Shown: positions 1-4,556 of the stretch, one piece after another | Position numbering within the stretch: the stretch's first letter is position 1 | Layout of the letters: every line of letters starts with the position of its first letter | Translations under genes and position numbers: made by a program | Source of the DNA: Betaproteobacteria bacterium | GTDB lineage: Bacteria; Pseudomonadota; Gammaproteobacteria; Burkholderiales; SG8-39 | Length of the DNA stretch: 64,000 nucleotides | NCBI GenBank assembly: GCA_005881595.1 | Contig: VBBY01000001.1 | Location: forward strand, 12,515 to 76,514 | Direction: 5' to 3' | The notes under the pieces: generated by a model | Seen by the model: only the letters and a program-made list of their open reading frames with translations | What the model was told of the DNA's origin: nothing | The model's database searches: none

Positions 1-230
1 AGATCGCGCCCGTGCTGGGATTTCAATGCGACACCCCAGCTTTTCCACAGTGCATGGATGCGAGGCGCGACGTGCAGCTGCACTTCACCGCAGCGCGCGG
101 CGAGGGCGGTGCGCACCGCCTGTCGCGTCAGCCGCGCCTGGAGGCGTGCCGCGCCCCATTCGCCAAGCCGGGGCACCAGGCGCGTCTTGACGCGGCCCGC
201 CAGCGGCGCGCGCGCGAAGACGATGACCAC
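1..230 (-). CDS. DUF2064 / TIGR04282-like 'transferase 1, rSAM/selenodomain-associated'; 5' part only, the gene runs off the left edge
   Basis: My translation of the minus strand from GTG at 230 gives VVIVFARAPLAGRVKTRLVPRLGEWGAARLQARLTRQAV..., which carries the FARxPxxGxVKTRL N-terminal signature of DUF2064. It begins 4 nt after the stop of the upstream GT2 gene. It is absent from the ORF track because the window edge truncates it. Confidence 0.6.
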   Translation of the reverse strand, partial: MVIVFARAPLAGRVKTRLVPRLGEWGAARLQARLTRQAVRTALAARCGEVQLHVAPRIHALWKSWGVALKSQHGRD

Positions 231-234
231 CGCG

Positions 235-918
235 TTACGGCTCGTTGGCGTAGAGGCGGGCAAGGACCTCCGGGCGAGCGCCAAGAAAATACATCAGCCG
301 CAGCCGCCACATGAGCACGATGGTGCGCGCCACGCCGCGCGACTCCCAGCGGCGCCCCGAGGTAACGACGCGCTGAGCAAGGCACGCTGGCGGCCCGGCG
401 CGCTTCATCGCCTTGCTGAAGGCGATGTCCTCCATCAAGGCAATCTCCGGAAATCCGCCGAAGGCGTCGCGCCGCACGAAGATCGCCTGGTCGCCGGTGG
501 CGATGCCGGTGAGCCGGGAGCGCAGGTTCATGGCGCAGCCAACGAGCTTCAGCAGCGGGTGCCGGGCGTCGATCTGCACGTCGAAGCGGCCCCAGACATG
601 GGTTCTCAGGGAAGACAGAATCATCTCGTCGGCCAAGGCAGGAAGCCGCGTGTCAGCATGCAGAAAAACGAGCGCGTCGCCGCGCGCTTCCCGCGCCCCG
701 GCATTCATCTGCAGCGCGCGCCCGCGCGGCGCCGCGATCACCCGGTCGCAAAGCGCGCGCGCGAGCTGCGGCGTGCCGTCGGCGCTGCCGCCGTCCACCA
801 CGATGACCTCGTGGCCGCGCCGGCGCAGCGGCTCGAGCGCCTGCAGGGCCGCCGCGATGCCCCGCGCCTCGTTCAGCGCCGGGACGACGACGGAAAGCCG
901 GATCAGCCGCGCATCCAT
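235..918 (-). CDS. Family 2 glycosyltransferase (TIGR04283-like 'transferase 2, rSAM/selenodomain-associated')
   Basis: C-terminal 227 aa of ORF 235..1554, from the internal ATG (MDARLIRLSVVVPALNEARGI...VIVVDGGSADGT...FLHADT...). These are GT2 motifs. The part of the ORF upstream of this ATG overlaps the oxidoreductase gene and is Arg-rich shadow sequence. Confidence 0.75.
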   Translation of the reverse strand: MDARLIRLSVVVPALNEARGIAAALQALEPLRRRGHEVIVVDGGSADGTPQLARALCDRVIAAPRGRALQMNAGAREARGDALVFLHADTRLPALADEMILSSLRTHVWGRFDVQIDARHPLLKLVGCAMNLRSRLTGIATGDQAIFVRRDAFGGFPEIALMEDIAFSKAMKRAGPPACLAQRVVTSGRRWESRGVARTIVLMWRLRLMYFLGARPEVLARLYANEP

Positions 919-3050: not shown

Positions 3051-4009
3051 GCGGCAAGCGCGCCGCCGCACGACGACCCCTGCCCCGCGGTGCAGCCATA
3101 GCAGTGGTCGCGCACGGCGATCGGGTTGCCGGCGAGATCGCGTCCGATCAGGTCCGAAAGATGCGGGCGCCTGCGGCCTTCGAGCCGCAGCGGCAGCCCC
3201 AGCATCTGGTTGAAATCGCAGTCGTAGACGTAGCCCTGCCAGTCGACCGAGAGCAGCGTGCGGCACATCACGCCCTCGAGGTTGTCGGCGCGGTGCGAGC
3301 GGTGCAGCAGCGCCATGTACTCGTTGAACTGGCCCTTGGAGATCAGCGTCGAGCCGAAGCGCTGGATCGGCATGTTGGCGAGCGTGTAGAGGCGATTGAA
3401 CACGATGCCGAAGCGCTCGCCCAGGACCCGTTTGTAATCGAGCTCGAGCTTATCCTGCGCCGGCGGCAGGGTCGGCCCTTGCGGGTTGTAGACAAGATTG
3501 AGAATCAGCTGGTCATCCGTACCGTAGCCAAGGGCATTCAACCGCTTGAGAGCGCTGATGCTCTTGTCGTACACGCCTTTGCCGCGCTGGCGGTCGACCA
3601 GCTCCTCGGTGTAGCACGGCAGGGACGCGATCACCTCGACCTGCCGGGAGGCGAGGAACTCTGCGAGATCCGCCTGGCCCGGCTCCTCGAGGATCGTCAG
3701 GTTGCAGCGGTCGATGACGTGCACTCCCAGCTCCCGCGCGCGCACGACCAGCTCCCGGAAATGGGCATTCAGCTCCGGCGCTCCGCCGGTGATGTCGAGG
3801 ATCCGGATCGAAGACATGCCGATGAACGCGACGACGTCGGCCAGGGTCTCGCGCGACATCTCCTCGGTGCGCTGCGGGCCTGCGTTGACGTGGCAGTGCA
3901 CGCAGGTCTGGTTGCATCGGTACCCGACATTGACCTGCAGGGTTTCGAGGCGGCGGCGCTGGATGGCCGGAAAGCCGAAATGCCGCATCAAAGGCAGGGT
4001 GGCATGCAT
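3047..4009 (-). CDS. arsS: Radical SAM / Cys-rich domain protein of the ArsS (arsenosugar biosynthesis, TIGR04167) family
   Basis: ORF 3047..4048. LETLQVNVGYRCNQTCVHCHVNAGP contains the CxxxCxxC radical SAM motif. The C-terminal tail HCYGCTAGQGSSCGGALAA is the family hallmark (the Cys is Sec in selenoprotein members). The start at the second Met (MHATLPLMRHFGFPAIQ) lies 4 nt after the upstream stop. Confidence 0.8.
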   Translation of the reverse strand: MHATLPLMRHFGFPAIQRRRLETLQVNVGYRCNQTCVHCHVNAGPQRTEEMSRETLADVVAFIGMSSIRILDITGGAPELNAHFRELVVRARELGVHVIDRCNLTILEEPGQADLAEFLASRQVEVIASLPCYTEELVDRQRGKGVYDKSISALKRLNALGYGTDDQLILNLVYNPQGPTLPPAQDKLELDYKRVLGERFGIVFNRLYTLANMPIQRFGSTLISKGQFNEYMALLHRSHRADNLEGVMCRTLLSVDWQGYVYDCDFNQMLGLPLRLEGRRRPHLSDLIGRDLAGNPIAVRDHCYGCTAGQGSSCGGALAA

Positions 4010-4013
4010 GGTC

Positions 4014-4556
4014 TTAAAGGATGTTGACTGCGCCCGGCGACTGCTCATCGAGCAGTCCCAGCAACCGCTGGCTCGTGGCGCGCAGGCGCTGCGAGAGCAT
4101 GAGGACCAGCTCCATCAGGATCTTGGCGCCGAGCAGCGGCTGCTCGACGATGATGCGGGCCAGGCTCTCGCGGTGGAGCACGGCGATCAGCGTCGGCTCT
4201 GCCGCGACGCAGGTGGCGAAGCGCGCCTCGCCGTCGATCATCGACATCTCGCCGAGCGTCCTTCCGCCTTCGACCACCGCCAGCGTCTGCGGCGTGTTCC
4301 AGCGGTCGCGCTTCTGCACCTCGACCTTGCCTTCGACGACCATCAGCATGAAATCGCCGCCGTCGCCTTCCTGGATGATTTCAACGCCCGGCTCGGCGCG
4401 GTACATCTCCATGAAATGCGCCAGCAGAAGCACCTCCGCCGGAGAGAAGTTCTCCAGCAGCGCGCAGCGGGGAATGAGCGCGTGCATCTGGCCCGCGAAC
4501 TTGGTGGCGTCGCCGAGAGGTTCGAGGTGCGCGAGCTGTGGCGGGGAATCAGGCAT
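4014..4556 (-). CDS. Stand-alone cyclic-nucleotide-binding (CAP effector) domain protein
   Basis: 180 aa. ..FSPAEVLLLAHFMEMYRAEPGVEIIQEGDGGDFMLMVVEGKVEV...RTLGEMSMIDGEARFATCVA.. matches the cNMP-binding beta-barrel pattern (GE..ld...RsAt). No HTH or other output domain follows. Confidence 0.75.
   Translation of the reverse strand: MPDSPPQLAHLEPLGDATKFAGQMHALIPRCALLENFSPAEVLLLAHFMEMYRAEPGVEIIQEGDGGDFMLMVVEGKVEVQKRDRWNTPQTLAVVEGGRTLGEMSMIDGEARFATCVAAEPTLIAVLHRESLARIIVEQPLLGAKILMELVLMLSQRLRATSQRLLGLLDEQSPGAVNIL

Follow-up and report, generated by a model that had tools for sequence, protein, structure and literature searches.

What does an ArsS-family enzyme of the radical S-adenosylmethionine (SAM) type do in a soil betaproteobacterium whose ArsS gene has no arsenite methyltransferase gene (arsM) beside it? 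The question is raised by a 64,000-nt stretch of contig VBBY01000001.1 (positions 12,515 to 76,514; Betaproteobacteria bacterium, assembly GCA_005881595.1), hereafter the window, in which direct reading and the list of open reading frames (ORFs) place five consecutive genes on the minus strand within nt 1–4700. In order along that strand they encode a cyclic nucleotide monophosphate (cNMP)-binding protein, ArsS, a fusion of a DedA/VTT membrane domain to a flavoprotein, a glycosyltransferase family 2 (GT2) protein and a DUF2064 protein. We favour, with modest confidence, the reading that this locus is an arsM-less member of the proteobacterial arsenosugar-type cluster of ArsS, TIGR04283 and TIGR04282, to which a membrane-anchored MerA-like flavoprotein and a clade-specific cNMP protein have been added. 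Much less confidence attaches to each individual enzyme assignment in that reading than to the whole.

An ArsS-family enzyme and its recurrent partners

The ArsS gene (3047–4009, minus strand, ATG start) encodes 320 aa that matched the equivalog model TIGR04167 at 460.7 bits (cut-off 300) over profile positions 2–303 of 303, together with PF04055 and the C-terminal DUF3641 domain PF12345 (184.7 bits). The radical SAM motif is C32NQTC36VHC39 (CNQTCVHC), and a C-terminal Cys-rich motif reads HC303YGC306TAGQGSSC314, in which the Cys314 of GSSC occupies the place described as selenocysteine (Sec; GxxU) in selenoprotein forms, a motif listed for the ArsS family (PMC13188914). All ten Cys were conserved in 113–114 of 114 aligned homologues, and no position of that alignment separated ArsM-linked from unlinked copies. 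We found no solved ArsS structure, the nearest PDB matches being generic radical SAM cores. Passages of three sources (PMC13598754; bioRxiv 10.64898/2026.04.29.721666; PMC8552651) describe ArsS as adenosylating trivalent dimethylarsenic, DMAs(III), to DDMAA (5'-deoxy-5'-dimethylarsinoyl-adenosine), from which adenine is removed afterwards; in those passages a cyanobacterial enzyme is the only one tested for this activity. The same adenosylation would be expected of the window ArsS. A public contig encodes a 498-aa 'cNMP-ArsS' protein (P0284) touching the junction region at window positions 4014–4060; we rejected it as a genuine fusion, since a frameshift close to where the cNMP gene ends lets the reading frame run on into the in-frame upstream extension of ArsS (ATG 4048).

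The GT2 gene (235–918, minus strand, ATG at 918) encodes a small, soluble protein of 227 aa that matched TIGR04283 (261.1 bits, cut-off 182) and PF00535 (59.2 bits). The DUF2064/TIGR04282 gene (1–230, minus strand, GTG at 230) is cut by the left window edge after its first 76 codons, and this 76-aa fragment scored 50.4 bits, under the TIGR04282 cut-off of 134; the full 204-aa protein (L001 13780–14394), whose N-terminus is identical to that in the window, scored 182.1 bits, with 95.5 bits against PF09837. The full-length protein also matched the CofC model weakly (37 bits) as well as MobA-like nucleotidyltransferases, its nearest PDB entry is 3cgx, a 'putative nucleotide-diphospho-sugar transferase', and a CofC/MobA-like nucleotidyltransferase fold is predicted for it. 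The preliminary description of this DNA had named all three families, and TIGR04167 and TIGR04283 indeed exceeded their cut-offs in the window, as TIGR04282 did in the full-length copy. Its operon of ArsS, two transferases and a TVP38 fusion likewise stood, while the 'unknown product' that it assigned fell in part: in NCBIfam release 20 both TIGR04282 (model type 'hypoth_equivalog') and TIGR04283 bear the name 'arsenosugar biosynthesis glycosyltransferase', and public proteins almost identical to those of the window, from metagenome-assembled genomes of Betaproteobacteria and Burkholderiales, are already labelled with arsenosugar biosynthesis names or the Joint Genome Institute names 'rSAM/selenodomain-associated transferase 1/2'.

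A scan with the ArsS alignment, limited to one genome per species, yielded 80 proteobacterial loci with ArsS 62–77 % identical to that of the window, 49 of which offered full context (at least 3 kb upstream and at least 7 kb downstream of ArsS); a scan centred on the VTT–flavoprotein fusion yielded 80 metagenome loci. As with the family memberships, gene order and its conservation could be observed directly, and the conserved neighbourhood expected in the preliminary description was present: the order ArsS, VTT–flavoprotein, GT2, DUF2064 was strongly conserved over the 80 genome loci. In full contexts, ArsS was accompanied by a TIGR04283 GT2 at 40/49 loci, by DUF2064 at 35/49, and by a MerA-like flavoprotein and a VTT domain at 33/49 each, and therefore the arrangement is not chance. 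Less frequent neighbours were an unnamed protein of about 315–340 aa (17/49), a TIGR03169 flavoprotein of a family fused to SelD in some organisms (15/49), DUF3047 (14/49), DUF547 (11/49), an extracytoplasmic function (ECF) sigma factor (9/49), an ArsM-like methyltransferase, a methylthioadenosine (MTA)-phosphorylase-like gene and a sodium:solute symporter (6/49 each), and the cNMP protein (4/49).

A link to arsenic was visible in part of this collection. ArsM-family genes lay inside the cluster at 13 of the 80 genome loci and 6 of the 80 metagenome loci, and the ArsS copies directly beside such genes were 64–73 % identical to the window ArsS. The 'arsenosugar ArsM' model NF038099 (cut-off 400) was passed by L012 (549 bits) and L022 (401 bits), and the ArsM-like protein of L046 passed the general arsenite methyltransferase model. 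Three loci (L012, L097 and L155) displayed the window order with arsM inserted, namely ArsS, ArsM, fusion, GT2 and DUF2064, and a fourth (L098) comprised ArsS, ArsM and the fusion before its contig ended ahead of GT2. An MTA phosphorylase (MTAP)-family gene was found in the cluster at nine of the 80 genome loci (TIGR01694, 275.8 bits, cut-off 274.85), which fits the published removal of adenine from DDMAA before ribose derivatisation. On plasmid p1 of Cupriavidus sp. KK10, a co-directional set encodes a transporter, an ArsM-like protein, an AhpD/YciW-like protein, ArsS, the flavoprotein, VTT, GT2, DUF2064 and MTA phosphorylase, and continues with a second, weakly TrsS/Tes-like radical SAM protein and DUF547; on a Burkholderia thailandensis plasmid (L170), TIGR04282, TIGR04283 and MTAP genes were again near ArsS. 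Taken as comparative sequence evidence, the ArsM-linked loci, the full KK10 set and the conservation of the cluster support an arsenosugar-type pathway.

The two plasmids displayed further features. In both, a second radical SAM gene (about 460–490 aa) and then DUF547 travel with the ArsS cluster (L171 14413–16708 on KK10 p1; L170 12122–14319), and the weak resemblance of the L171 protein to TrsS and to Tes, a tetraether lipid synthase, hints that one step modifies a lipid. At L170 6564–7678, a CcdA-family membrane thiol-disulfide transporter and a thioredoxin are encoded instead of the fusion, beside an ECF sigma/anti-sigma pair; their presence where the fusion is missing suggests that a membrane redox function is a conserved requirement.

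The unnamed protein of about 315–340 aa followed ArsS at 21 of the 80 genome loci (e.g. L040 10956–11984 and L169 9057–10004). It displayed an invariant Cys22, a GCGCxYP motif, HGD and HxC, and matched nothing in Pfam, NCBIfam or the PDB profiles; it could be a pathway enzyme that binds metal or arsenic. An assignment as a degenerate metallophosphoesterase, suggested by its motifs and by a TIGRFAM note, was dropped for want of any such match. L169, a 3.8-Mb contig of a relative, kept the whole synteny of the window and carried a TauE-family gene and a 315-aa version of this unnamed gene in addition. The window contains neither the unnamed protein nor MTAP, DUF547, DUF3047 or TIGR03169, and tblastn with all accessory families found elsewhere returned no match in its 64 kb.

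The fusion protein, the cNMP protein and the genomic setting

The fusion gene (903–3050, minus strand, GTG start) encodes 715 aa, in which one N-terminal transmembrane helix and a DedA/VTT domain (approximately nt 2499–2840) are joined through a basic linker to a class I pyridine-nucleotide-disulfide oxidoreductase (approximately nt 984–2336). The VTT domain expected in the preliminary description was confirmed with PF09335 (83.1 bits, gathering score 33.9, residues 71–184), and the oxidoreductase is complete (residues 239–689; PF07992 216.9, PF00070 84.2 and PF02852 93.6 bits). Because the last VTT helix is followed by the basic linker, the flavoprotein presumably faces the cytoplasm. Every named NCBIfam model scored the flavoprotein under its cut-off, including the best match NF004991 (501 bits, cut-off 620), the MerA model TIGR02053 (377.9 bits, cut-off 454.45) and the dihydrolipoyl dehydrogenase (LPD) model TIGR01350 (389 bits, cut-off 408.8), which places it outside both of the latter families; its best PDB match was MerA 5x1y (244.6 bits).

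The redox-active disulfide Cys275-x4-Cys280, read from the sequence (GGDCLNTGCVPSK; 2211–2228, minus strand; CLNxGCVPSK), was invariant in 32 aligned sequences and in a second alignment of orthologues. Alignment to solved structures revealed that Tyr679 (IHIYPTLAE) replaces the catalytic His of LPD (HPHPTLSE) and aligns with a Tyr of MerA (PYLTMAE); this Tyr (YPTLAE) was invariant in orthologues, with Glu684 kept. The C-terminus (...HAWMRG) has no Cys and therefore no MerA C-terminal Cys pair, an NmerA domain is absent, and an invariant, family-specific EPHDS..RY motif stands where MerA has its substrate Tyr. The flavoprotein is MerA-like and appears not to be a disulfide reductase; a Tyr in the place of the thiol-disulfide acid–base His fits a metal or metalloid substrate better than a disulfide. 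It is probably NADH-dependent, because strand two of its NAD(P)H domain ends in a Glu (VTQVE) that resembles that of NADH-using LPD and not NADPH-using MerA. The same fusion was present at 31 genome loci and at all 80 metagenome loci fetched, and VTT and flavoprotein were adjacent separate genes at at least five genome loci. In a variant contig (L006), 328 nt of the VTT-coding part (window 2375–2702, L001 11308–11635) are replaced by 100 unrelated nt, so that only a 475-aa flavoprotein was called and the membrane domain is gone, and a thioesterase gene is also missing; whether the replacement reflects true strain variation or an error of assembly, either could explain it.

The tight run begins with a gene (4014–4556, minus strand) for a stand-alone cNMP-binding protein of 180 aa without a DNA-binding domain. 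It matched PF00027 at 57 bits, the CRP model covered only profile positions 26–137 of 214, and no helix-turn-helix family was matched in NCBIfam or Pfam, so that it does not belong to the CRP/FNR transcription factors. The gene adjoined the cluster only in the closest relatives (L007–L010, L089, L090, L094, L096 and others), amounting to 4 of the 80 genome loci and about 13 of the 80 metagenome loci, and is specific to one clade. A 3-deoxy-D-arabino-heptulosonate 7-phosphate (DAHP) synthase gene lies only 30 nt upstream of it on the same strand, and therefore the transcript may exceed five genes. We rejected DAHP synthase as a conserved sixth member of the operon, because other genes intervene before the cNMP gene in L007–L009, L094 and L169. 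One such interval, in L169 (6775–7458), holds a TauE/SafE-family anion permease gene between DAHP synthase and the cNMP gene; in L101 a gene of the same family follows directly after DAHP synthase in the same interval, and the window has none.

Junctions within the run are short. The cNMP stop TAA (4016–4014) is separated from the ArsS ATG (4009) by a 4-nt gap (GACC), the ArsS stop TGA (3049–3047) overlaps the fusion GTG (3050–3048) in a −4-nt junction (GTGA), the fusion stop TGA (905–903) falls inside the GT2 gene with a 16-nt overlap, and the GT2 stop TAA (237–235) is followed by a 4-nt gap before the DUF2064 GTG (230). The coordinates, the minus strand and the junctions of +4, −4, −16 and +4 nt all agree with the preliminary description, and independent gene calls on six soil-metagenome contigs with identical ArsS used the same starts. 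From the overlaps only, we infer translational coupling and co-transcription of the five genes; treating the five as one unit is supported in the window, with the qualifications that the cNMP gene is confined to its clade and that the transcript may begin further upstream. Scans of positions 1–6500 located no sigma-70 promoter-like site, and terminator-like sites only at the level of shuffled controls, none of them convincing inside the unit; an Rfam scan of positions 1–12000 at E ≤ 0.1 returned zero matches, and therefore no riboswitch or leader. The GC content of the run (0.65–0.70) does not differ from its surroundings. A plus-strand ORF of 688 aa (3702–5768), antisense to ArsS, cNMP and DAHP synthase, is no gene but a high-GC shadow ORF. 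A GC-frame gene caller picked such antisense ORFs (e.g. L001 8242–10308) and was replaced by tblastn and ORF clustering.

Beyond the left edge, contigs with identical ArsS continue with the rest of DUF2064, a convergent GDSL lipase gene, tctB and tctA, and farther on with a RidA-family gene, cobalamin adenosyltransferase, xseA, exbBD and lpxK; an arsM immediately past the edge, which the preliminary description had considered as a sign of a canonical arsenosugar locus, is not among them. Upstream of DAHP synthase are a thioesterase gene, an AAA protein gene on the other strand, alaS, recX and recA, and the remainder of the window is housekeeping in character (ffh, rpsP-rimM-trmD-rplS, riboflavin genes, secA, the dcw cluster from ftsL to ftsZ and lpxC) with CoA transferase, tctC and amidohydrolase genes; the locus is chromosomal. 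Elsewhere in the window (13836–16282, minus strand), the gene for a 454-aa Memo–AMMECR1 fusion precedes that for a radical SAM protein of 361 aa; the pair corresponds to the 'AmmeMemoRadiSam' system, another comparative-genomics neighbourhood of unknown function.

A candidate pathway and competing explanations

The comparative evidence favours, as a cautious reading, the membrane-associated pathway to a modified sugar or lipid containing a metalloid or chalcogen that the preliminary description had proposed. In the arsenosugar-type reading, ArsS would add a 5'-deoxyadenosyl radical to trivalent dimethylarsenic to give DDMAA, a step with experimental support from the cyanobacterial enzyme only. 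An MTA-phosphorylase-type enzyme, encoded in the cluster in some genomes and here presumably the housekeeping enzyme, may then remove adenine to leave 5-arsinoyl-ribose-1-phosphate; DUF2064 could nucleotidylate this arsinoyl-ribose phosphate, or a phosphorylated acceptor, and GT2 would move the arsenoribosyl unit onto a glycerol-type or lipid acceptor. At the inner membrane, the flavoprotein of the fusion might keep the methylarsenical trivalent for ArsS or reduce a pentavalent product, and an intermediate that is lipid-linked or amphipathic might be moved by the DedA/VTT domain, either across the membrane or within it. With no linked arsM, dimethylarsenic would be supplied by an unlinked ArsM or by other soil organisms that make methylarsenicals.

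A more far-reaching version of this scheme is, as a whole, speculative and in our judgement rather unlikely. It holds that the fusion, GT2 and DUF2064 would be the missing downstream half of bacterial arsenosugar/arsenolipid synthesis, and that the operon would salvage the methylarsenicals of neighbours, not detoxify arsenite of its own, in an abundant, arsM-less clade of soil Burkholderiales. The flavoprotein would be a new kind of membrane-anchored, MerA-like, NADH-dependent organoarsenical reductase that supplies ArsS with DMAs(III) by reducing pentavalent dimethylarsenic, DMAs(V). An arsenoribosyl product linked to a lipid would be dealt with by the DedA domain, and control of the operon by a cyclic nucleotide would run through the cNMP protein.

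Several observations weigh against an arsenosugar-type pathway at this locus. The roles of GT2, DUF2064 and the fusion are argued from fold and family analogy only, and a literature search found no experiment on TIGR04282, TIGR04283 or the VTT–flavoprotein fusion. Searches by tblastn with four ArsM types found no match in the 64-kb window, so that the adjacent arsM of a canonical arsenosugar locus is lacking, and there was no arsM or other methyltransferase gene in 10 kb past the left edge. As the preliminary description had noted, no arsM or other ars gene was seen in the window; nor was a sel gene (selD, selA or selB), and the 10-kb left flank likewise had no ars-resistance or sel gene. In a neighbour-joining tree, the ArsM-linked ArsS copies were scattered and none fell in the window's clade of about 20 members, where 0 of the approximately 20 loci has a linked ArsM, and no recurrent flanking family other than the ArsM-like genes is an ars gene. 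In the metagenome scan centred on the fusion, GT2 and DUF2064 lay downstream as a rule whereas of the 22 loci with full context only 12 contained ArsS. Seven syntenic relatives (L101, L102, L109, L112, L126, L128 and L135) had neither ArsS nor a remnant of it, displaying the order DAHP synthase, cNMP, fusion, optional DUF547, GT2, DUF2064 and convergent GDSL lipase, and five loci paired the fusion only with DUF547 and DUF3047. The ArsS-less syntenic loci indicate that ArsS has been gained or lost within a stable block, and because of them the partner genes may not be strictly ArsS-dependent; either those genomes encode ArsS at another site, or the block serves some function by itself.

The latter possibility is the substance of the alternative that survives best, which we nevertheless regard as improbable: that the core of cNMP, VTT–flavoprotein, GT2 and DUF2064 is an arsenic-independent module for envelope or lipid glycosylation and redox chemistry, with ArsS an optional addition. 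DUF2064 would make a nucleotide-activated sugar, GT2 would load a lipid carrier and DedA would flip it, while ArsS would feed in an unusual 5-substituted ribose in some genomes. Besides the seven ArsS-less blocks and the five fusion–DUF547–DUF3047 loci, this explanation draws on the ECF sigma/anti-sigma genes beside the cluster at 11 of the 80 genome loci and on the B. thailandensis plasmid, on weaker GT2 matches that include dolichyl-phosphate hexose transferase, AglJ and HpnB, and on passages of PMC10127716 in which COG0398 DedA proteins resemble eukaryotic phospholipid scramblases and have the flavoprotein as their commonest fusion. Set against it, TIGR04282 and TIGR04283 stand beside ArsS in 35–40 of the 49 full-context genome loci, these genes are flanked in Cupriavidus KK10 by ArsM/ArsS on one side and MTAP on the other, and ArsS may sit elsewhere in the ArsS-less genomes, which are represented by metagenome contigs of 3.5–42 kb.

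If the arsenosugar-type reading erred in its element and not in its chemistry, the substrate would be another soft metalloid or chalcogen (Se, Te or Sb), the ArsS homologue adenosylating a reduced species supplied by the flavoprotein. We consider this decidedly unlikely. Some members of the ArsS family are selenoproteins that carry Sec where the window protein has Cys314 (NCBIfam name; PMC13188914), but an enzyme that contains Sec need not have selenium as its substrate, and no selD, selA or selB was seen in the window. The TIGR03169 flavoprotein in the cluster at 15/49 loci (307 bits, cut-off 310), the MerA-like rather than disulfide-reductase character of the flavoprotein, the absence of linked arsM from the window's clade and a DedA protein linked to selenite resistance (Ledgham 2005, as cited in passages of PMC10127716) would all suit such a substrate; however, no residue distinguishes ArsM-linked copies of ArsS from unlinked ones, and the ArsM family accounts for the only methyltransferases found in the clusters. 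That the five genes are mere neighbours without a shared pathway, their overlaps reflecting the compact packing that makes short overlaps common in high-GC genomes, is already contradicted by synteny and highly improbable, since the order recurs with ArsS 62–77 % identical across Beta-, Gamma-, Alpha- and Zetaproteobacteria and plasmids, and VTT and flavoprotein occur both fused (approximately 31 genome loci) and as adjacent separate genes.

Significance and relation to known systems

Arsenosugars and arsenolipids dominate arsenic in seafood and occur in soils. In the literature reached, the steps after DDMAA in their synthesis have no assigned enzymes, and the clusters described here supply a testable set of candidates: the MTAP-like phosphorylase, the DUF2064 nucleotidyltransferase, the TIGR04283 GT2 and the DedA-fused MerA-like reductase. 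Cultured carriers are at hand in Cupriavidus sp. KK10, Caldimonas manganoxidans, Roseateles puraquae and the plasmids of Burkholderia glumae and B. thailandensis. The cluster proteins are very common in soil metagenomes (at least 8000 candidates), and therefore the pathway could matter for soil arsenic speciation; it would also give the commonest domain fusion of COG0398 DedA proteins a first physiological context. We regard the locus as of moderate interest, as a source of testable enzyme candidates. In the literature searched, we did not find described the tight and frequent association of the DedA–flavoprotein fusion with the ArsS cluster, the cNMP protein of the window's clade, the polymorphism of a single synteny block for presence or absence of ArsS, or the fact that this soil clade consistently lacks a linked arsM.

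The locus adds one more member to a neighbourhood defined by TIGRFAMs/NCBIfam comparative genomics and already named by annotation pipelines, and is not a new kind of system. That neighbourhood, 'rSAM/selenodomain-associated' and now 'arsenosugar biosynthesis', consists of TIGR04167, TIGR04282 and TIGR04283, all three of which are adjacent in the window; its family notes name a phosphoesterase and are not known to list the DedA–flavoprotein fusion or the cNMP protein. The arsM-arsS pair of Synechocystis sp. PCC 6803, responsible for the first oxo-arsenosugar steps, belongs to the same radical SAM family, a comparison made through the TIGR04167 model only. In contrast to that pair, the window belongs to a soil betaproteobacterium and has no arsM, adjacent or elsewhere, in its 64 kb and the 10 kb beyond, and its partners GT2, DUF2064, VTT–flavoprotein and cNMP go unmentioned in the passages describing the Synechocystis work.

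A working analogy is provided by the hopanoid route, in which the radical SAM enzyme HpnH adds a 5'-deoxyadenosyl radical to give adenosylhopane, the purine nucleoside phosphorylase-family HpnG removes adenine and the glycosyltransferase HpnI elaborates the ribosyl product. The counterparts in window-type clusters would be ArsS, the MTAP-like phosphorylase (in 9/80 clusters) and GT2, although the radical SAM and glycosyltransferase families differ and the radical acceptor here would be arsenic and not an alkene. With MerA, the window flavoprotein shares the CxxxxC redox pair and the Tyr at the position of the catalytic His of LPD and glutathione reductase; unlike MerA, it has no C-terminal Cys-Cys and no NmerA, has the EPHDS..RY motif and is fused to DedA/VTT. 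Its closest architectural parallel is the DedA–oxidoreductase fusion of the COG0398 (TVP38/YdjX-type) subfamily, with the same combination of PF09335, PF07992 and PF02852. Passages of PMC10127716 that describe the flavoprotein fusion as the commonest in this subfamily assign it no function and no link to ArsS, GT2 or DUF2064, whereas here that link was present in most loci.

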